Position numbers and translations under genes: made by a program
The notes under the pieces: generated by a model
The model's database searches: none
What the model saw: only the letters and a program-made list of their open reading frames with translations
What the model was told of the DNA's origin: nothing
Shown here: one piece after another, positions 1 to 49,442 of the stretch
Layout: every line of letters starts with the position of its first letter
Numbering within the stretch: position 1 is the first letter of the stretch
NCBI GenBank assembly: GCA_028286725.1
Contig: JAQBQZ010000003.1
Coordinates: 1-52,264, forward strand
DNA from: Candidatus Tayloriibacteriota bacterium
GTDB lineage: Bacteria; Patescibacteriota; Minisyncoccia; Phycocordibacterales; CAIRYW01
Length of the DNA stretch: 52,264 nt
Direction of reading: 5' to 3'

Positions 1-20
1 ACCGCGCCCAAGGGCGCGGT
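1..20. terminator. GC-rich hairpin ACCGCGCCC-AA-GGGCGCGGT; probable terminator after the small minus-strand ORF
   Basis: Perfect 9-bp inverted repeat at the window edge; the minus-strand U-tract would lie outside the window. Confidence 0.5.
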
Positions 21-36
21 TCATTTTATTTTAAGA

Positions 37-177
37 TTACTTTCCTTTATTGTATCTCTTGTTTGCAGTCTTTGCGGCGATCTTTGCCTTCTTGATCGCG
101 AGTCTCTTTTTTGTTTTTCGAGGCCCTTTGAGTCGTAGTGTTGTGAGTCTACTTATTGATCCTGTTCTTTTTGCCAT
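37..177 (-). CDS. Small, very basic protein, 46 aa (MAKRTGSISRLTTLRLKGPRKTKKRLAIKKAKIAAKTANKRYNKGK)
   Basis: Translated by hand (below ORF-track cutoff); ATG at 177, TAA at 37-39, A-rich leader, hairpin directly downstream. Confidence 0.6.
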   Translation of the reverse strand: MAKRTGSISRLTTLRLKGPRKTKKRLAIKKAKIAAKTANKRYNKGK

Positions 178-4363: not shown

Positions 4364-4563
4364 GGTTCGATCCCTACCGGTGTTGCCAAATAAAAAAATC
4401 ACAGCATTTGCTGTGATTTTTTTATTTGGCGACACCGAGCAAGTGCGGGACACTTGCGTGTAGGGATCGAAAACCTTTTGAGCATAATTTGCGAATCTTT
4501 GAAGCAAATTATCCAAAAGGTGTACTGATCCTGTAAGGATCGATATCCCTACCGGGGGAGCCA
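4364..4563 (+). repeat. tRNA-3'-end-mimic composite repeat, copy 1
   Basis: Core 4438-4552 nearly identical to 5404-5518; starts GGTTCGATCCCTAC-CGGTGTT-G-CCA and ends ATCCCTAC-CGGGGGA-G-CCA. Confidence 0.9.
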
Positions 4564-4596
4564 CTAAAAATACCCTTATTTTATATGGGTGTTTTT

Positions 4597-5275: not shown

Positions 5276-5347
5276 TCCCCTGTAGCTCAGCGGTAGAGCA
5301 ATCGACTGTTAATGGATTGGTCGTAGGTTCGATCCCTACCGGGGGAG
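5276..5347 (+). tRNA. tRNA-Asn (GTT)
   Basis: Acceptor TCCCCTG/CGGGGGA, D-arm GCTCAGCGGTAGAGC, anticodon loop CT-GTT-AA, T-arm GTAGG-TTCGATC-CCTAC; one G-G mismatch in anticodon stem; followed by CAA, not CCA. Confidence 0.9.
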
Positions 5348-5529
5348 CAAAATACAAAAACACCAGAGAATATTCTGTGGTGTTTTTGTATTTTGCTCCC
5401 CCGAGCAAGTGTGGGGCACTTGCGTGTAGGGATCGAAAACCTTTTGAGCATAATTTGCGATTTTAAGAAGCAAATTATCTAAAAGGTGTACTGATCCTGT
5501 AAGGATTGATATCCCTACCTCCGTAGCCA
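5326..5529 (+). repeat. tRNA-3'-end-mimic composite repeat, copy 2 (uses the real tRNA-Asn 3' end as its left arm)
   Basis: Same order of modules as 4364-4563; ends ATCCCTAC-CTCCGTA-G-CCA followed by a terminator-like hairpin. Confidence 0.9.
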
Positions 5530-6623: not shown

Positions 6624-7253
6624 CTAACACAACATGATGACAACAGTTATGATCATAAAGAAAAGATTTTCGAATGTGTATGCTGACTCCTCGAGAATCT
6701 TCATTCTATGCTCTGGTTGTTTCCTGATCTTCATGACAAGTTTTTCAACTTTGATCAGGGTGATGGTTGCTGCCATAATCCACATATACCATCCGGCAAG
6801 CAGCCACCAGCTTGGTGGATCATGTGGCAGGAGGTACTGTTTGATCTGCGGATAGTAGGACATTACATCGGTAATAATCCCGCCAAGGAAAAGAATTCGG
6901 GGATTACCTTTCTTCTTGAGCGTGCTCCATATAACCCAGATCACGATTGTGGTGATGAGACCGTAGAGAACGATCTTTTCCGCATCTCCTAAATTGAAGG
7001 TGGTACCTCTGAGGCACAGCCCGAAGATCAGCATTGAGAAATTTCCAGTAAGGAAACCTGCCAAAAGCTTCCATCCGTCGTAACCTTGGGCTCGCGATGA
7101 GATCATGAGCATGGTCGCGAGTATGAGCCAAATGCTGTACGAGGCGAGGTTTATTTCTTCTGGATGTTGCCATCCGCCGATAGCAAGAGGAATATATGCT
7201 CCCGCGCTCAGAACTAATACGATATTATCCCAAGAGATTTTTGTTAAGGGCAC
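6624..7253 (-). CDS. Multi-TM membrane protein, PQ-loop-like, paralog of 35297-35878
   Basis: About 6-7 TM segments; DVMSYYPQIKQ motif; terminator CCATCATCACGA...TCGTGATGATGG downstream. Confidence 0.75.
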   Translation of the reverse strand: MPLTKISWDNIVLVLSAGAYIPLAIGGWQHPEEINLASYSIWLILATMLMISSRAQGYDGWKLLAGFLTGNFSMLIFGLCLRGTTFNLGDAEKIVLYGLITTIVIWVIWSTLKKKGNPRILFLGGIITDVMSYYPQIKQYLLPHDPPSWWLLAGWYMWIMAATITLIKVEKLVMKIRKQPEHRMKILEESAYTFENLFFMIITVVIMLC

Positions 7254-7453
7254 TTGCGGTTCCTTTCATGTTGTTGGTTGTTGTTAAGGGGAATGGCGTC
7301 GAGCTATTCCTGACTATTTGTTTAATTAAAACACAATATATGGAACAAGTAAATATGTACTCAAGATTGAGTTTAAAAACCTGTGTAATCAGAGATCCTT
7401 TGTCACTCTACTAGTGCACATTTTGAACACATTTCCTATGATATGATTACTTT

Positions 7454-22853: not shown

Positions 22854-23921
22854 ATGGCATTCAAATTTCTACAAAAATTCTACGCAATGTTCTCAAATGA
22901 TATCGGGATCGACCTCGGTACTGCAAACACTCTTGTGTATGTGGAAGGTAAAGGTATTGTCGTGCGTGAGCCATCAGTTGTAGCGCTCAATCAAAAGACG
23001 GGGCAGGTAGTAGCGGTAGGAAGCCAAGCTAAAGACATGCTCGGCAAGACTCCTGGCCATATTATCGCTATTCGGCCAATTGTTGATGGTGTGATTTCGG
23101 ACTTTGAAGTAACTGAAGAAATGATGTCATATCTCATCAATCGAGCAGAAGGCGACAACAAAAAAATGCTCGGTCCTCGAGTGGTTGTAGGTGTGCCATC
23201 AGGCATTACAAACGTTGAGAGACGAGCCGTACGAGATGCAACAGTGAATGCTGGTGCGCGAGAAGTTCATATTGTTGAAGAGCCAATGGCTGCAGCAATC
23301 GGTATTGGAGTACCAATCAATGATCCGGTAGGAAATATGATTGTGGACATTGGCGGTGGCACAACGGATATTGCGATTATTTCTTTGGGTGGAATTGTTC
23401 ATTCTCGAAATATCAAGATCGCAGGAGATAAGCTCAATAATGACATTACACAGTTTCTAAAAAATGAGCTCAAGATTCTTATTGGAGAAAAAACTGCGGA
23501 AGATATCAAAATAAATATTGGAAGCGTACTTGATACAGATTCTGGTGGAGAGATGGCGGTTCGAGGACGAGATCTTATCACGGGACTTCCTCGAGAAGTG
23601 GTGATTACTGAATCAGATGTGCGAGATGCGATCGCAGGATCTATCAATACACTCATCGAATCGATCAAAGAAGTGATCGAGATTACTCCGCCTGAAGTTG
23701 TGTCTGATATTATGCATCGTGGACTTCACTTGGCAGGAGGCGGAGCGCTCATTCGAGGAATGAAAGAGCTTCTTGAAAGTGTGCTCAAGATCCCTGTTCA
23801 CGTTGCTGAAGATCCGCTCACAGCAGTTGTGCGAGGAACAGGAATAATCCTAAATGATATTGATGCGTATCAGGATGCGCTAATTAAAAACGAAGATGAG
23901 TTACCTTTTACACGCAACTAA
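22854..23921 (+). CDS. mreB: Rod shape-determining actin MreB (paralog 2, in mre operon)
   Basis: DIGIDLGTANT, VDIGGGTTD, AGGGALIRG. Confidence 0.96.
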   Translation: MAFKFLQKFYAMFSNDIGIDLGTANTLVYVEGKGIVVREPSVVALNQKTGQVVAVGSQAKDMLGKTPGHIIAIRPIVDGVISDFEVTEEMMSYLINRAEGDNKKMLGPRVVVGVPSGITNVERRAVRDATVNAGAREVHIVEEPMAAAIGIGVPINDPVGNMIVDIGGGTTDIAIISLGGIVHSRNIKIAGDKLNNDITQFLKNELKILIGEKTAEDIKINIGSVLDTDSGGEMAVRGRDLITGLPREVVITESDVRDAIAGSINTLIESIKEVIEITPPEVVSDIMHRGLHLAGGGALIRGMKELLESVLKIPVHVAEDPLTAVVRGTGIILNDIDAYQDALIKNEDELPFTRN

Positions 23922-24684
23922 AAAAAGAAATAGGCATCCATTTAGAAAACTTTTAATAGTTTTGGTGTGTTGTCTCATCTTAGGTTTTTTTGCTCGAGAA
24001 TTTATTAGTCAGACGGCGCTTGCAACAGGACTTTGGTTTAAAAGTGTTTTGAATGTTGTGGTGCCGAGCGGGCTTCGTACAGATGCTGAATTACTTTCTG
24101 AAAATGAGCGACTTCAAGGTGAAGTGGTCCGACTGACAGCAGAGAACGCTGACAGAGGCGTGCTTGATGTTGAAAACCAGAATCTAAAATTCGAACTTGG
24201 TCGCAAAGAGAATGCATCAACAACTAAATCAGCAGCAAAAAAGGGAATTCTTGCGATTGTTAGATCAAAGCCTGCTGAAACACCATTCGATACTTTTATG
24301 CTTGATGCGGGAATGGATTCGGGAGTTGTGATTGGAGACAATGTTTATTATGGCAATCTAGTCATAGGAACGATTGTTGATGTTGGAGCGGCTTTTTCTA
24401 AAGCAGAACTTTTTTCTTCTCCGGGCAAAGAATTCGCAGGAACTGTAACAGCTGCAAAATTAAAAATAGATGTGAAAGGGCTTGGTGGAGGACTCTTTGA
24501 GTCGCTTGTACCAGAAGGAGCACAAATCAAGATCGGAGATGCAATCGTTTTACCATCGATCAAAAGCAAAGTCTTCGCTGTCGTATCTCAAATAGAAGAC
24601 AAGCAAGCTGAAGGATTCAAGAGGCTCCTCTTTACACTTCCAGTCAATCCAAATCAGTTGAGTGAAGTAACTATTTCAAAATAA
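23896..24684 (+). CDS. mreC: Rod shape-determining protein MreC
   Basis: TM, coiled coil (LLSENERLQGE), LDAG.DSGV..G, PSIKS; directly after mreB. Confidence 0.85.
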   Translation: MSYLLHATKKRNRHPFRKLLIVLVCCLILGFFAREFISQTALATGLWFKSVLNVVVPSGLRTDAELLSENERLQGEVVRLTAENADRGVLDVENQNLKFELGRKENASTTKSAAKKGILAIVRSKPAETPFDTFMLDAGMDSGVVIGDNVYYGNLVIGTIVDVGAAFSKAELFSSPGKEFAGTVTAAKLKIDVKGLGGGLFESLVPEGAQIKIGDAIVLPSIKSKVFAVVSQIEDKQAEGFKRLLFTLPVNPNQLSEVTISK

Positions 24685-35086: not shown

Positions 35087-35227
35087 ATGGTCAAAGTTAA
35101 AGATATTATGTGCGAAGAATGTGGAGTGGTGATGGAGTTGCATCCTGAATCAAAATTAATGAAATGCGGCCGCTGTCGTCGCGTGTTGGCTCTTGACGAA
35201 GAAGATTTGGACGATTTGAAGGAGTAA
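35087..35227 (+). CDS. Small zinc-ribbon protein, 46 aa (MVKVKDIMCEECGVVMELHPESKLMKCGRCRRVLALDEEDLDDLKE)
   Basis: Translated by hand; CxxC-x14-CxxC plus acidic tail; followed by long hairpin CACCCGTTTGCAGAAGCTAATT... Confidence 0.75.
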   Translation: MVKVKDIMCEECGVVMELHPESKLMKCGRCRRVLALDEEDLDDLKE

Positions 35228-40550: not shown

Positions 40551-40621
40551 AAAATAAATATCAAAACGCCCAGGTCTTGCGACTTGGGCGTTTTTGGTTG
40601 GTGAATTCTTGAATGTTGCCA

Positions 40622-40780
40622 TCAGGCAAAATTTTTTGAACTCATTGGGTTGTTGAAAAATCTGTCCACGACATAGATCACCGAAAACCCGATGATAAAG
40701 AGTAGAGAGATTCCCAGAAGAACTACTGGAGCGAGGATTGGCAGTAATGGTACTGCTAGCAGTGTGAGGATGTGTTTCAT
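40622..40780 (-). CDS. Small membrane protein, 52 aa (MKHILTLLAVPLLPILAPVVLLGISLLFIIGFSVIYVVDRFFNNPMSSKNFA)
   Basis: Translated by hand; long hydrophobic stretch. Confidence 0.55.
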   Translation of the reverse strand: MKHILTLLAVPLLPILAPVVLLGISLLFIIGFSVIYVVDRFFNNPMSSKNFA

Positions 40781-40892
40781 AAGATTGTGTCCCGACCTTA
40801 TTCAACATATCATCATTTTATTTGAGTGTAAACATAATTGAGTGCGTATGTGAAAAAAATAAAAAACCAAAGTCTCGAATGAGACTTTGGTG

Positions 40893-41108
40893 TCAGTAGA
40901 GTATTTTGAGTACTCCACCTTTAGGTTTTGAAATCCAGGACTTTCTTTTGGATGGCTCGCTCGGAGAGTGGTATAAACCAATCGTAATGATCGCTGTCTC
41001 AAATGCAAACTCGGACATTGGTATAGCTATCCAAAAGAAAGCATACCAAACACAAAGACCTATAAAAACAAAGAGGGAAATGAGCAGACTAATAAAGATC
41101 TCTTTCAT
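40893..41108 (-). CDS. Small membrane protein
   Basis: 71 aa, hydrophobic N-terminal half; hairpin CCAAAGTCTC/GAGACTTTGG downstream. Confidence 0.45.
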   Translation of the reverse strand: MKEIFISLLISLFVFIGLCVWYAFFWIAIPMSEFAFETAIITIGLYHSPSEPSKRKSWISKPKGGVLKILY

Positions 41109-41140
41109 GATGCTAAAGATATACTACAACTAAAGGGCTC

Positions 41141-41185
41141 AAAGTAAAACAGCACCGAGGCGTAGCCTCGGTGCTGTTTTACTTT
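41141..41185. repeat. GCACCGAGGC-type palindrome / terminator of the HIT gene
   Basis: AAAGTAAAACAGCACCGAGGC-GTA-GCCTCGGTGCTGTTTTACTTT. Confidence 0.8.
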
Positions 41186-41189
41186 GAAT

Positions 41190-46563: not shown

Positions 46564-46638
46564 ATATAAGTATTCAAGTTTAAAACAGAGACTTGTCAAC
46601 CTGGGAAAAAGGATGATTTTTGATATGATATACGAATT

Positions 46639-47337
46639 ATGAAAGCTGTTATATTAGCTGCTGGTAAAGGAACAAGAATGGGAGCTCTTTCTGAAGAGAC
46701 TCCTAAGCCTATGCAAAAAGTGCTTGAGAAGCCAATTCTCATGCGTATTCTTGACGCTCTTCCAGATGAGATCAATGAAGCTGTGATCACGGTTAACTAT
46801 CTTAAAGAACAGATTATTGATGCATTTGGACCAAAGTATAAACATATAAAGATTACATATATCGAGCAGAAAGAGCTTTTAGGTACCGCGCATGCATTAT
46901 GGGCATGTAAAGAGCATCTCATAAATGAGGATAAGTTTTTGGTTATGATGGGGGACAATATTTATACTAAAGAAGATCTTGAGGATTGTCTTCAAAATCC
47001 ATGGGCTCTCCTTGTGGAAAAGAGAAGTTCAATCAAGGGTGTTGCTAAAGTTGTTGTTGATGATGCCATGAATGTTCAAGATATTATTGAACGATATCCA
47101 AATGAAGAAGAAGGATTCACATCTCCGGGAGTCTATGCACTCACACCTGATATTTTTAATTATGAAATGGTGCAATGGGGTCATGGGGAATATGGATTAC
47201 CACAGACTATTGTTCTCGCAAAAAACGATCGCCCAATTAAGGCTGTAGTATTAAGATTTATGTTAATTATTACAACACCAGAAAATCTTAAAGAGGCTGA
47301 AGATCATTTTCTTTCTCTAGAAGTTGAGACTAAATAA
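46639..47337 (+). CDS. Sugar-phosphate nucleotidyltransferase (NTP_transferase family)
   Basis: AVILAAGKGTRM, TPKPM, LGTAHAL, MMGDN. Confidence 0.88.
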   Translation: MKAVILAAGKGTRMGALSEETPKPMQKVLEKPILMRILDALPDEINEAVITVNYLKEQIIDAFGPKYKHIKITYIEQKELLGTAHALWACKEHLINEDKFLVMMGDNIYTKEDLEDCLQNPWALLVEKRSSIKGVAKVVVDDAMNVQDIIERYPNEEEGFTSPGVYALTPDIFNYEMVQWGHGEYGLPQTIVLAKNDRPIKAVVLRFMLIITTPENLKEAEDHFLSLEVETK

Positions 47338-47359
47338 ATATTTAAATAGAATTTTTAAA

Positions 47360-47655
47360 ATCGAAAACCGGACTTGCGTGCGCAAATCCGGTCTTTAAAT
47401 TTGGTCCCACACCAGTCATTTTGGTTGATCCGGCAGGGATCGATTTCTGCATAGAATGCAGTGGAGTTTACCACCAACAACGAAGGGCTCCGTTTACCAA
47501 TATATGACTAGTGTGAGAATTCCAACAACGCTCGGTGAGGTACCAGCGCTAAAATGAACAAAAATGAGCGCTTCTCGTCGTGCCCTACGACATCGACAGG
47601 AAGCCTTCCCGGTCACCAGATCTCCCACTGACTCTGGTCGGAAATTCTTATATTA
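47360..47655 (-). ncRNA. Candidate structured ncRNA, unit B
   Basis: TTGACA-N17-TATATT (47689-47661), about 290 nt with no ORF of 60 aa or more, two multi-hairpin domains, terminator ACCGGATTTGC-GCAC-GCAAGTCCGGT-TTTC. Confidence 0.6.
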
Positions 47656-47719
47656 AATTCAATATAAATCTAAATATTAAAAATGTCAATAGTAGCGAAT
47701 TAGATCTTTGGGAAATTAT

Positions 47720-48052
47720 TTAAAATGAGAAGTGACCGTCAGCACGAAGCGGACGGTCACTCTTTTCTCAACTTATAGAAGGGCCCTGGCGCCAACGGCC
47801 GTTGCATAAAATGCAACCGGAGAACTGCGGAAAAACTGAACGCAGAACACACCTCCGAGCTGTCACCTCGCCCTTTACTTTTCTGTTGAAGAAACTTTAA
47901 AAAACAAATACCCTGTGTTGAGGGTGCCACTGTAAAAAACTACAGGTGTAACCTTGTGGTGTAGCGTTCTCGGAGTTAAAGGTCACCCATAATTAGCTGC
48001 ACTCACCCCAACACAGAGCCTCCATGATCCTCCCAAGGCATCATGAAGCTAG
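47720..48052 (-). ncRNA. Candidate structured ncRNA, unit A
   Basis: TTGACT-N16-TATAGT (48085-48058), about 330 nt with no ORF of 60 aa or more, long stems, terminal hairpin AGTGACCGTC/GACGGTCACT. Confidence 0.55.
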
Positions 48053-48086
48053 TTGTTACTATACTTACAAAATAGGGTTAGTCAAA

Positions 48087-49442
48087 TTAGTCCTTTATTT
48101 CAAAACCTTTTGATTGGATCTGGTTTCGGAGTTCATCTGCTTTTGTCCAATCTTTATTTTCTCGAGCAATTTTTCTTTCCTCAATTAGTTTCTGGACATC
48201 TTCTGGAATTTCTATATTTTCTTTTATGACAGAGCCGAGCATGAGACCAAGCACTTTGTCGAAATCAGTAAGTGTAGCTTTTCTGTCTGCCTGATTTAAT
48301 TCTCCATCTTTGACGAGTTCCCAAACTATTGCGAGTGCTTTTGGTGTGTCGAGGTCATTGTTCACAGCCTCGATAAATCTTTCTTTGTATTCAGTATTTA
48401 CTACACCGTTTCCATTACTTAGAGAATTAAAATGAGCGTGAAGTTTTTCGTAGGCTACTTGTGCAGATTTGATCGCATCGAGCGAATAATCCACCCGAGT
48501 TGAATATCGTGCAGTTAAAAGCCAGTATCGGTAGGCGAGAGTGTGTACTCCGTTTTTACTTAGTGTTTCTAGTGTGAGGAAGTTGTCTCCTGATTTTGCC
48601 ATCTTATCCTCTCCGATTGTAATGTGTGCATTATGCATCCAAAAGTTTGCGAGATTGTGTCCTGTTGCACATTCAGTTTGAGCGATTTCGTTGTTGTGGT
48701 GCACCGGAATATGATCAATTCCTCCTGTGTGAATGTCGATCGGAGTGCCGAGATACTTTTCTATCATCGCAGAACATTCGATGTGCCAGCCAGGGAATCC
48801 GTTTCCAAATGGAGCAACAAAACCAAGTCCTGTTCCATCGGCAAATTTCCATAATGCAAAATCCCGATAGTTTTTCTTTTCAGTATTTGATTCGATACGC
48901 CCATGGTCATTGTCCTCTGCGATACCTCCGAGTCTTCCGTAATGAGTATCTTTTGTAGTATCAAAATAAATTCCATCTGTTGTTTTGTATGCAAAATCTT
49001 TTTGAAGGAGGGTTTGAATCATCTCGATATCTTCTTTGATGTGATCACTTGCAAAAGGAAATGCAGACGGGAGTTCGATATTCAGTTTCTCTAGATCTGT
49101 TTTGAATGCTTCAAAATAAAAATTGGCAATAGAGCGCATGTTTTCGAGGTTCATTTCTTTACCTTCTCGTTTGAGTGCTTTGACCATTTTGTCGTCACCT
49201 TGGTCAGCATCGCTTGTTAGATGTCCAACATCTGTTACGTTCATTATGTGCTTTACATTAAATCCATTGTATTTGAGAGTTCGTTTGAGTGTATCAGCAA
49301 ATACGTAAGCACGGAGATTGCCAATGTGTGCATAGTTGTAGACGGTCGGTCCACAAGAGTAAAGTTTAACTTCTTTTGGGTTTATTGGTGTAAATTTTTG
49401 TTTCTCCTTGCCGAGAGTGTTGGATAGCCAGATTTCATTCAT
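48087..49442 (-). CDS. cysS: Cysteinyl-tRNA synthetase
   Basis: CGPTVYNYAHIGN, PGWHIECSAM, HNNEIAQ, KMAKS. Confidence 0.97.
   Translation of the reverse strand: MNEIWLSNTLGKEKQKFTPINPKEVKLYSCGPTVYNYAHIGNLRAYVFADTLKRTLKYNGFNVKHIMNVTDVGHLTSDADQGDDKMVKALKREGKEMNLENMRSIANFYFEAFKTDLEKLNIELPSAFPFASDHIKEDIEMIQTLLQKDFAYKTTDGIYFDTTKDTHYGRLGGIAEDNDHGRIESNTEKKNYRDFALWKFADGTGLGFVAPFGNGFPGWHIECSAMIEKYLGTPIDIHTGGIDHIPVHHNNEIAQTECATGHNLANFWMHNAHITIGEDKMAKSGDNFLTLETLSKNGVHTLAYRYWLLTARYSTRVDYSLDAIKSAQVAYEKLHAHFNSLSNGNGVVNTEYKERFIEAVNNDLDTPKALAIVWELVKDGELNQADRKATLTDFDKVLGLMLGSVIKENIEIPEDVQKLIEERKIARENKDWTKADELRNQIQSKGFEIKD

Follow-up and report, generated by a model that had tools for sequence, protein, structure and literature searches.

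Tandem 'sibling' small RNAs (sRNAs), such as PrrF1/PrrF2, OmrA/OmrB and LhrC1-5, are encoded side by side on one strand, every gene having its own promoter and intrinsic terminator. In the RNAIII hairpins and in RsaE/RoxS, C-rich loops pair to ribosome-binding sites, while 6S RNA and Ms1 are RNA-polymerase-binding RNAs that occur as two paralogs in some bacteria. For the Patescibacteria, our literature search returned no described sRNA families, and almost no regulatory or structural RNAs besides rRNA, tRNA and RNase P. The window analysed here, a 52,264-nt stretch of DNA from a Candidatus Tayloriibacteriota bacterium, has a 749-bp gap (47338-48086) that separates cysS from a sugar-nucleotidyltransferase gene, and this gap, judged from its sequence, holds two real structured non-coding RNA genes (units A and B) that are lineage-restricted and predicted to be separately transcribed. 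Units A and B represent a new RNA family of an already known kind, i.e. structured sRNA genes.

A first-pass annotation had described two minus-strand units in this gap, each with a sigma-70-type promoter and an intrinsic terminator and neither with an ORF of 60 aa or more, and all the features it listed were found in the sequence where it had placed them. Both promoters and both terminal hairpins with U-tails are present, and the longest ORF in the gap has 57 aa. In unit A, the -35 box begins 4 bases past the cysS stop codon TAA (48087-48089), and the convergent nucleotidyltransferase gene ends at 47337. The predicted RNAs are modular and heavily base-paired, each ∼300 nt long, with the modules ordered as 5′ hairpins, a U-rich single-stranded linker, a branched 3′ domain within a long closing stem, and the terminator (Table 1).

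Table 1. Predicted features of units A and B (window positions)
Feature	Position	Strand	Detail or support
A promoter, TTGACT-16-TATAGT	48058..48085	-	10/12
A predicted transcript, ∼330 nt	47722..48052	-	start predicted, accurate to a few nt
A-H1, 5′ hairpin, 11-nt loop GCCUUGGGAGG (48039..48029)	48018..48049	-	fold and L139 ortholog
A-H2, 108-nt long hairpin, closing stem CUCUGUGUUGGGG/CCCUCAACACAGGG	47911..48018	-	fold and compensation
A linker, U-rich, UAUUUGUUUUUUAAAGUUUC	47891..47910	-	UGUUUUUUAA identical in L139
A 3′ domain, irregular stem leading to ∼3-way junction	47764..47894	-	fold, L139 ortholog
A junction arm, CGGAG...CUCCG hairpin	47857..47818	-	
A junction arm, UUGCAU-UUU-AUGCAA hairpin	47816..47802	-	
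A terminator hairpin, GAGUGACCGUC..GACGGUCACUUC (also written GUGACCGUC...GACGGUCAC), then UCAUUUU	47722..47762	-	U-tail
B promoter, TTGACA-17-TATATT	47661..47689	-	11/12
B predicted transcript, ∼300 nt	47355..47655	-	
B-H1 hairpin, 12-nt loop GUCAGUGGGAGA	47609..47641	-	
B-H2 hairpin	47570..47604	-	at 52-86 / 47-83 / 51-89 in three orthologs, sequences differ
B linker, single-stranded, GCUCAUUUUUGUUCAUUUUA	47550..47569	-	sequence conserved
B-H3 hairpin, loop UACCUCA, then motif GUUGUUGGAAUU	47518..47549	-	
B-P4, 15-bp closing stem around ∼4-way junction	47406..47517	-	
B-P4 arm, GGAG[..UUCGUUGUUGG..]CUCC	47491..47463	-	
B-P4 arm, CUGCAU-UCU-AUGCAG	47461..47447	-	
B-P4 arm, GAUCC-CUGCC-GGAUC	47441..47427	-	
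B terminator, GACCGGAUUUGCG..CGCAAGUCCGGUU with UUUUCGAUUUU tail, A/U-rich 5′ flank AAAUUUAAAG	47357..47402	-	

Three properties that mark an sRNA gene were found in both units. First, each has its own promoter on the RNA strand (10/12 for A and 11/12 for B), as have 18/18 units from 12 loci, all scoring at least 9/12 and 16/18 at least 10/12. Second, each ends in an intrinsic terminator, a stable GC-rich hairpin with a U-tail and with compensatory changes inside. Third, no reading frame is conserved: relative to L139, a close relative from Logan run SRR21279730 with alignable copies of both A and B, substitutions in the two units lack codon periodicity (p = 0.81 and 0.91, versus 1.7e-37 for cysS), 8 of the 11 indels have lengths not divisible by three, and no ORF is common to the orthologs. 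What the homologs conserve is base pairs and not an ORF, the opposite of the outcome that had been named as refuting the RNA-gene proposal.

Minimum free energies (MFEs) of -122.1 kcal/mol for A (z -4.14) and -114.6 kcal/mol for B (z -6.99) were reached by none of 100 dinucleotide shuffles in either case, and the window units and their orthologs together span z -3.3 to -8. The proposal of two ORF-free, strand-specific structured RNA genes is supported. The halves of each unit are also structured when taken without the terminators, the A 3′ domain weakly so. The first-pass annotation had read G-U wobbles as pointing to a minus-strand RNA, and this was borne out, the sense strand folding better than the antisense in 8 of the 9 units tested and being richer in G-U pairs (11 versus 5 in B; 15 versus 1 in the ortholog of B from L002).

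It is highly improbable that the gap encodes no functional RNA and consists instead of degenerating protein-coding DNA, of a gene for a small protein or a type I toxin, or of MITE/REP-like DNA, whether mobile or palindromic. Unit B of the window does hold a 44-codon GTG ORF with a hydrophobic C-terminal half, the content of the gap varies strongly between relatives (0 to 3 units), and the long perfect stems look like inverted repeats; but the ORF is not kept in L002, L135 and L139, 3-nt periodicity is absent and most indels break the triplet frame, neither the window nor any of 139 loci contains a second copy of the units, similarity to phages or plasmids was not detected, and the G-U pairs and the stability advantage fall on the sense strand of units whose promoters and terminators are conserved. 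A type I toxin-antitoxin system was rejected on the non-conservation of that same ORF, as were small-ORF readings on both strands, including an antisense ORF from the conserved linker, whose peptides are unconserved and lack periodicity; a MITE/REP-type element was discarded on the absence of further copies in the window or loci and on the G-U and MFE bias toward the sense strand.

The ortholog of unit A (L139:4392-4715), when folded independently, takes the architecture of the window unit. Between the two we counted 13 double-compensatory pairs, against 7.5 ± 2 in shuffles (2/500 reaching 13) and 2-9 in slid controls; the covariation evidence here and below is drawn from few sequences, namely pairs and triples. 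The fold of unit A is retained through compensatory changes, which include two double changes in the stem of A-H1 (helix 2), where L139 differs in the stem and has CCCCGGGAAGG as loop, three in A-H2 (helix 3), each UA to CG, and two in the terminator (helix 14). Conserved as well are the block AACGCUA in the apical loop of A-H2 (47980..47954) and, in L139 and L001, the promoter hexamers despite substitutions in the spacer. The 3′ domain is the weakest part of the unit, since it reaches only z -1.7 when folded alone. A terminator scan scored 47925..47910 plus tail as terminator-like, and the linker may be an internal, leaky terminator after H2. Unit A is the second gene, evolving even faster than B.

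Orthologs of unit B were recognised in L139 (Smith-Waterman z 30 versus the window B), L135 (8.2) and L002 (6.9), and further ones were reached via the L139 copy in L044 (z 14) and L001 (z 5.4). MAFFT/RNAalifold misaligned the helices of these sequences and a hand-registered helix table was used instead, in which H1, H2, H3, P4 and the terminator recur at corresponding positions, their sequences unrelated and 98-100% of the pairs canonical, the 'both-sided change' counts mostly recording helices that persist with different sequences and not column-exact covariation. The position and loop size of B-H1 are kept in L002 (GAUUGGAAGGUG) and L135 (CGUCAGGGAGG) with unrelated stem sequences, while the L139, L044 and L001 copies are without H1 and H2. 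The linker recurs as CAUUUUUGAUCAUUUA in L002, AUUUCAUUUU in L139 and CCAUUGUUCUUUACCAUUU in L135. In H3, whose motif GUUGUUGGAAUU overlaps the final two bases of the stem's 3′ arm, the loop CCUC has an unpaired probability of 1.0 in the window unit, and CCUC loops were found in this unit and in the L002, L135, L139 and L044 copies. The B-P4 stem is fully canonical in six orthologs (11-17 bp) with different sequences, and its interior is conserved with L139 only. Judging from these comparisons, unit B is one orthologous, fast-evolving gene across a small Patescibacteria (Paceibacteria-like) clade, the predicted minimal core of which is H3, P4 and the terminator, with H1 and H2 as an optional 5′ extension.

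Sequence identity to L139 is 57% for unit A and 66% for unit B, compared with ∼61% at the third codon positions of cysS. Both units therefore appear to turn over at about the synonymous rate, the helices nonetheless being kept. The exposed motifs that stay put are the GGGAG(G) loop, the CCUC loop, UGUUGG and the U-rich linkers. GTTGG occurs on the sense strand in 13/16 units and on the antisense strand in 1/16, and UGUUGG is strand-specific with 1-3 occurrences per unit.

The kinship of A and B was less clear. The 5′ hairpins with TGGGAG (48049..48018 in A, 47641..47609 in B) and the paired TGCAT hairpins (TTGCAT-TTT-ATGCAA and CTGCAT-TCT-ATGCAG) are exactly where they had been reported, but the roughly five-way junctions attributed to both units gave way to ∼3-way (A) and ∼4-way (B) junctions in the ortholog-supported folds. 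The TGCAT hairpins match at 12/13 positions, which is insignificant alone because 8 of 131 pairs of non-homologous units match equally well, and the local alignment of A with B is at chance (z 1.1; 31/200 shuffles as good). What the units do share is a 5′ hairpin whose loop, 11-12 nt long, ends in GGGAG(G), and a GGAG...CUCC hairpin directly followed by a YUGCAY-loop-RUGCAR hairpin, the latter kept with compensatory changes in the L139 ortholog of A (CUGCAC-AUCGU-GUGCAG) and the L002 ortholog of B (CUGCAC-GGGU-GUGCAG). Of the claim that A and B are diverged paralogs, the common GGGAG loop and GGAG/UGCA-hairpin module thus stood and sequence similarity did not, and the shared elements only weakly suggest descent from one ancestor.

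In 11 contigs of related Patescibacteria, 1-3 tandem promoter-RNA-terminator units of similar type occupy the corresponding site, whereas in more distant relatives the gap is absent and the cysS and nucleotidyltransferase genes abut or overlap; the copy number at this fixed site is 0-3, with units of 180-410 nt. Pattern scans of the genome contigs gave no match for the B interior, one chance match for the A terminator (a Poribacteria contig), and for the 'C-type' pattern only L003's own contig and chance matches. A locus search with a nucleotidyltransferase alignment was too general and returned unrelated taxa. No candidate partner gene co-varying with the presence of the RNA was found in the neighbourhood of the related loci.

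The flanks of the B terminator recur in L002, L003, L044, L001, L135, L137 and L139, and their A/U symmetry suggests bidirectional use, i.e. a terminator probably shared with the convergent nucleotidyltransferase gene. Because cysS and unit A are not separated by a terminator, transcription reading through cysS must continue into A. Both observations would suit a purely cis role, in which the gap is a long structured cysS 3′ UTR with bidirectional terminators that insulate the convergent genes and has no function in trans, as would the related genomes that do without the gap. We consider this improbable, for a near-consensus promoter is kept in every one of the 18 units, compensatory change maintains structure well past the terminators, and 1-3 units of 180-410 nt are far above what insulation needs.

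The units had been called an unrecognised RNA class without features of RNase P RNA, SRP RNA, tmRNA or 6S RNA, and neither statement needs revision. Searching the gap and nine homologous loci against Rfam 15 gave no family at the gathering score or at E ≤ 10, only chance matches; ARAGORN found two tRNAs in the window, both outside the gap, and no tRNA-like end or 6S rod is present. tmRNA was rejected on the lack of a tRNA-like part (ARAGORN) and of any Rfam match in the gap, and SRP and 6S RNA on the lack of Rfam matches and on MFE folds that end in the terminator hairpin without a 5′/3′ closing stem. For RNase P RNA, there was no covariance-model match at E ≤ 10 and its P4 helix sequences (GAGGAAAGUCC...) were not encountered, the one place in the gap that matches the P4 motif with up to 3 mismatches being a chance match inside the B terminator. 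The stretch GGUAAACUCCAC in unit B, which resembles a conserved segment of M1 RNA from E. coli, had served as a lead only, and was dropped in view of these results and of its non-conservation in the L002 and L135 orthologs. A very divergent universal RNA of one of these four types, missed by the Rfam models in Patescibacteria, is thus extremely unlikely: candidate phyla radiation RNase P RNAs are often missed at Rfam thresholds (PMC8172020), but the searches at E ≤ 10 came back empty, and the locus is missing from sister genomes, therefore unlike an essential RNA at a fixed site.

A ligand-binding role, the other function initially offered besides a protein sponge, is unlikely as judged from the alignments, with junction interiors unconserved even among close orthologs and no ORF or expression platform downstream; riboswitches and aptamers were rejected on these differing interiors, the missing downstream ORF and the lack of an Rfam riboswitch match. 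In a related scheme, each sRNA would be under sensor control, as in EutX/Rli55: a signal perceived by H1-H2 would set termination at the U-tract versus read-through into the 3′ domain. A stable hairpin and a conserved U-run do lie mid-unit (UGUUUUUUAA in A, CAUUUUUGUUCAUUUU in B, GAUCUUUUUU in 'C-type' units), and between L003 and L136 the 5′ domain is ∼75% identical with the 3′ domain not alignable. However, the U-run begins 4-9 nt past the stem, a poor terminator geometry, the B orthologs of L139, L044 and L001 have the 3′ domain directly behind their own promoter, and invariant aptamer-like junction nucleotides are lacking, making this scheme very unlikely.

We favour, with roughly an even chance of its being correct, a reading in which the strand of cysS carries two independent genes for non-coding RNAs, trans-acting riboregulators that would most likely work by base-pairing through CCUC/UGUUGG. 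Each RNA would be started at its sigma-70-type promoter, ended at its intrinsic terminator, and act in trans by offering conserved single-stranded loops to partner RNAs or an RNA-binding protein; the likeliest single mechanism would be pairing of the CCUC loop and the adjacent UGUUGG with mRNA leaders, with the long stems as stabilising scaffolds, and the 0-3 tandem copies would have arisen through local duplication, divergence and loss, as 'sibling sRNAs'. Within the window, complementarity was at or near chance (CCAACAAC occurring 4 times outside the gap versus 1.4 expected), a duplex-energy target search of 58 start regions gave at best -18.5 kcal/mol, one among ∼400 tests and within multiple-testing expectation, and the cysS and nucleotidyltransferase leaders had no conserved complementarity to the units. 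These leaders lack obvious Shine-Dalgarno (SD) sequences in this lineage, and an anti-SD reading of the CCUC loop is therefore weakened. A kissing interaction between the GGGAG and CCUC loops, checked by hand, was rejected, as it would comprise no more than 4 bp and lacks conservation.

At ∼300 nt and with elaborate branched domains, A and B exceed most base-pairing sRNAs, which counts against the base-pairing reading. An unlikely alternative, though one to be weighed seriously, has them as protein-binding or scaffold RNAs in the manner of 6S, Ms1, Y RNA or CsrB, the loops being protein sites that the stems merely hold. Their size and very stable branched folds, the freedom of the sequence to vary while helices persist, the strand-specific UGUUGG and the GGA in every H1 loop all agree with it, but even at E ≤ 10 Rfam returned no 6S, CsrB/Rsm or Y RNA match, the 5′ and 3′ ends form no 6S-like rod, each RNA offers 1-2 candidate sites versus many in known sponges, and the neighbourhood holds no co-varying partner gene. 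A CsrA sponge of the CsrB/RsmZ type in particular was rejected: GGA is exposed only in the H1 loop, one GGA-type loop per unit, and no gap matched CsrB/Rsm in Rfam.

At present the two units reveal no new mechanism. It is conceivable, if rather improbable, that the site downstream of cysS is a hot-spot carrying a 0-3-copy array of new large structured RNAs specific to episymbiotic Patescibacteria, in which a constant scaffold (H3/CCUC, UGUUGG and the long P4) would show a hypervariable branched insert under diversifying, not purifying, selection, serving, e.g., phage defence or the interaction with the host bacterium as a decoy or specificity module; if true, such an RNA would be functionally of a new kind and not an ordinary riboregulator. 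The loci are concrete RNA genes, delimited from promoter to terminator and supported by orthologs, in an uncultured, genome-reduced lineage, and they follow an unusual evolutionary mode, with sequence turnover near the synonymous rate, a retained fold and 0-3 copies at one site. If expressed, they would be candidates for lineage-specific regulation where transcription factors are very few, and the loci would also be of use as seeds for new Rfam families.

Compared with known systems, A and B are like 6S RNA and Ms1 in being stable, abundant-looking and highly paired, with structure conserved above sequence, but they lack the central-bubble rod, their 5′ and 3′ ends do not pair with each other and no Rfam 6S match appears at E ≤ 10. 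They resemble EutX/Rli55-type sRNAs in that a hairpin and U-run divide the transcript into two domains and a terminator closes it, yet have no recognisable aptamer, and their 5′ domain is dispensable in several orthologs. Like the Gram-positive C-rich-loop RNAs (RNAIII hairpins, RsaE/RoxS), unit B shows CCUC in a small unpaired loop, conserved in five orthologs; unlike in those RNAs, there is one CCUC loop per RNA, the flanking UGUUGG has no counterpart there, and the leaders here are without SD sequences. The placement of the A promoter at the 3′ end of the upstream gene, its -35 box 4 nt past the cysS stop, recalls DapZ-type sRNAs embedded in 3′-ends, and since no terminator intervenes, cysS read-through and A would share 3′ sequence and terminator; the transcribed part of A, however, lies wholly downstream of the ORF, is much longer, and is followed by a second independent unit. 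The units differ from sibling sRNAs in being 2-4 times longer (180-410 nt), in their intricately branched domains, in that A cannot be aligned to B, and in having a Patescibacteria lineage as host. They share with such siblings their adjacency on one strand, a separate promoter and terminator for each gene, a copy number that varies between relatives, and short single-stranded motifs kept within diverging sequence.

The host of the window belongs to the Patescibacteria, its nearest CysS matches being MAGs labelled Patescibacteria, Paceibacterota or Minisyncoccia. cysS and a sugar-nucleotidyltransferase gene are convergent here, and the 749 bp between them constitute the largest ORF-free stretch of the window. 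The first-pass annotation had placed two RNA genes in this gap, each with its own promoter and terminal hairpin and without an ORF of at least 60 aa. The motifs it quoted were all present at its coordinates, two near-consensus sigma-70 promoters and two strong intrinsic terminators were located on the minus strand of the gap and delimit units A and B, and the longest ORF was 57 aa. Compared with dinucleotide shuffles, the fold stability reached z -4.14 for unit A and -6.99 for unit B.

Coordinates of the features in the window, in L044 (a related locus) and within unit B
Feature	Position	Strand	Remark
cysS	48087-49442	minus	
Sugar-nucleotidyltransferase gene	46639-47337	plus	Pfam NTP_transferase
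Promoter-like region of this gene	46569-46638		
Unit A promoter	48085..48058	minus	TTGACT-16-TATAGT
Unit A	~48052..47722	minus	
Unit B promoter	47689..47661	minus	TTGACA-17-TATATT
Unit B	~47655..47355	minus	
B hairpin H1	15-47 / 8-39 / 6-42		within W-B / L002-B / L135-B
B hairpin H2	52-86 / 47-83 / 51-89		same
B hairpin H3	107-128 / 103-122 / 108-124		same
B long stem P4, start	139 / 129 / 135		same
Membrane-protein ORF	6624-7253	minus	
GUUGUUGG complement in its leader	7270-7277	minus	
Start region with the best B-linker duplex	23861-23915		
ORF starting in it	23896-24684		
147-nt element	4417-4563; 5383-5529		
GGTTCGATCCCTACCGG...	4364; 4539; 5326		
Structured regions	4364-4573; 5326-5529		z -14.6; -12.0
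639-bp gap	40551-41189	plus	z -10.5
46-codon ORF	35087-35227	plus	
29-codon ORF	298-387 of L044		

Corresponding loci were gathered from related genomes by CysS-based scans, by homolog searches with both flanking proteins followed by look-up of the matching contigs, and by cluster look-up. The gene order corA-cysS >< nucleotidyltransferase-recR-dnaB is kept among these relatives, while the content between the convergent genes varies: two units in the window, L139, L001, L002 and L135, one in L003, L044, L128, L134 and L136, three in L137, no gap whatever in L129, L130, L132 and L138, and another downstream neighbour in L133. On the CysS identity tree, the loci carrying RNA units form one clade plus L128, with outgroups devoid of the RNAs. 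All 18 units end in a hairpin terminator and score at least 9/12 for the promoter (16 of them at least 10/12), and the nine units tested for folding gave z values of -4 to -8. In 8 of these 9 the MFE was lower on the sense than on the antisense strand, and G-U pairs were commoner on the sense strand as the first-pass annotation had argued, which speaks for selection at the RNA level rather than for a DNA palindrome.

No ORF is common to the homologs on either strand. Between the window and L139 (CysS identity 88%), mismatches by codon phase were 43/24/176 in cysS (p 1.7e-37) and 83/58/127 in the nucleotidyltransferase gene (p 1e-6), with indels in multiples of three, versus 48/46/42 in unit A (p 0.81) and 22/22/20 in unit B (p 0.91), where indels were mostly not multiples of three. 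Unlike cysS, the units thus lack codon periodicity, so the question whether the homologs keep base pairs or a reading frame was decided in favour of RNA.

Unit B of the window (W-B) resembles those of L139 (z 30), L135 (z 8.2) and L002 (z 6.9), and L139-B in turn resembles the units of L044 (z 14) and L001 (L001-B, z 5.4); these direct and L139-B-bridged similarities indicate that, as judged by sequence, unit B is one orthologous gene across the clade. Five helices, the fifth being the terminator, occupy matching positions in W-B, L002-B and L135-B. Their stems are unrelated in sequence, and the registered base pairs are nevertheless canonical on both sides in all but 2 of ~260 pairwise comparisons. 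The parts kept constant are single-stranded: the loop of H1 (GUCAGUGGGAGA, GAUUGGAAGGUG and CGUCAGGGAGG in W-B, L002-B and L135-B, respectively), the linker CAUUUUUGWUCAUUU, the H3 loop containing CCUC with an unpaired probability of ~1, and the following UGUUGG; GTTGG was found on the sense strand of 13/16 units versus 1/16 on the antisense strand. H1 and H2 are missing from L139-B, L044 and L001-B, in which the unit begins at the linker and has its own promoter, so the minimal B gene comprises H3, P4 and the terminator. In L044, a very hydrophobic ORF (MMYFIRFGFGKWFAFLTGLTFIYFGCMII), not seen in other loci, lies upstream of the lone unit and overlaps its promoter. The B terminator is flanked symmetrically by A/U-rich sequence, AAAUUUAAAG ... 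UUUUCGAUUUU, for which the best explanation is a putative bidirectional terminator common to B and the convergent nucleotidyltransferase gene. A third unit form (L003, L136, L137, L134) carries GUUGUUGGUUGC and the CCUC loop within a long 5′ hairpin, which is ~75% conserved between L003 and L136, the 3′ domain not being alignable.

Unit A has a sequence-level ortholog in L139 only (Smith-Waterman z 28); the A-position units of L001, L002 and L135 are not alignable to W-A, the window's unit A, but the promoter directly upstream is. W-A and L139-A are 57% identical, having diverged roughly as far as the third codon positions of cysS, and L139-A folded independently into the same architecture, in which H1, with GGGA(A)GG in its loop, is followed by a ~108-nt long hairpin, the linker UGUUUUUUAA, which is invariant, a branched 3′ domain and the terminator. 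When the W-A fold was projected onto the MAFFT alignment of these two sequences only, the structure being derived from one of them, 13 pairs had changed on both sides yet still paired, versus 7.5+-2 in column shuffles (13 reached in 2/500) and 2-9 in slid controls. The 3′ domain by itself is weakly structured (z -1.7).

The first-pass annotation took A and B for diverged paralogs, and here sequence similarity failed it, with z 1.1 and 31/200 shuffles aligning equally well; its TGCAT-hairpin match (12/13) was equalled in 8/131 unrelated unit pairs. What keeps the idea alive is a first hairpin with an 11-12 nt loop ending in GGGAG(G), and a GGAG...CUCC hairpin directly followed by a YUGCAY-loop-RUGCAR hairpin, in both units. 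The latter hairpin recurs in L139-A (CUGCAC-AUCGU-GUGCAG) and L002-B (CUGCAC-GGGU-GUGCAG) with compensatory changes at the first and last pair, and is absent from L139-B and L135-B. Paralogy is plausible but unproven.

Rfam 15 at gathering thresholds recognised two tRNAs and nothing else in the whole window; at E<=10 the gap, like nine homologous loci, gave chance-level matches only, unrelated sRNAs in the case of the gap. The earlier by-eye exclusion of tmRNA and RNase P agrees with ARAGORN, which found no tmRNA, and with the lack of an RNase P P4 motif in the units. Rfam is reported often to miss the RNase P RNAs of candidate phyla radiation bacteria (PMC8172020). Those RNAs retain low-score RF00010 matches and the conserved features; A and B have neither. 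Phage and plasmid records showed no similarity to the units, and neither the window nor the collected loci contain a second copy. Rfam Rp_sR47 (Rickettsia sRNA47) matches of up to 62 bits occur in L001, L003, L134, L135 and L136 upstream of corA/cysS, inside a conserved protein-coding gene (Peptidase_S41 region), and probably reflect coding-sequence conservation captured by the model, not an sRNA.

Other structured elements were seen in the window. Two 88% identical copies of a 147-nt element each lie directly after a tRNA 3′ end or a copy of such an end (GGTTCGATCCCTACCGG..., 5326 being the real tRNA-Asn end) in extremely structured regions. An integrating element that duplicated its att site could account for them, as could a structured RNA linked to the tRNA. 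Several very long perfect hairpins/terminators lie in the 639-bp gap, among them one with a 23-bp stem at the 3′ end of the gap; small ORFs may also be present. A small zinc-ribbon protein is the likely product of the 46-codon ORF, which looks unannotated, shows a CxxC...CxxC pattern (MVKVKDIMCEECGVVMELHPESKLMKCGRCRRVLALDEEDLDDLKE) and has a strong terminator hairpin on either side.

A and B are promoter-to-terminator, non-coding, strand-specific and structurally constrained units restricted to one clade. Through their conserved exposed motifs the RNAs would act in trans, and putative base-pairing regulation is our leading guess, closely followed by a protein-binding role; third comes action in cis alone, as a 3′ UTR or an insulator. 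Complementarity and duplex-energy searches within the window found no targets for the units. Sequences complementary to GUUGUUGG are present at four sites outside the gap versus 1.4 expected, one of them in the 5′ UTR of a multi-pass membrane protein gene without Pfam match, whose leader UUAACAACAACCAACAACAUGAAAGGA is complementary to GUUGUUGG(UUG), the motif marking the sRNA family; this leader is a candidate target, with an 8-mer match near chance level. The window's best duplex with the B linker GCUCAUUUUUGUUCAUUUUAGC spans a start codon at -18.5 kcal/mol, lower than 600/600 background windows and one match among ~400 tests. The cysS and nucleotidyltransferase leaders have neither conserved complementarity to the units nor an SD; a conserved promoter-like TTGTCAAC...GATATTATA stands ~8-10 nt before the nucleotidyltransferase ATG in the window and orthologous loci, which, with the lack of an SD in both leaders, suggests near-leaderless or SD-independent initiation in the host lineage.

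The units are real features and make up one or more new RNA families in a phylum that is still poorly charted. Their evolutionary behaviour is of interest, nothing found points to a new mechanism, and in kind they are already familiar as independently transcribed bacterial sRNAs.
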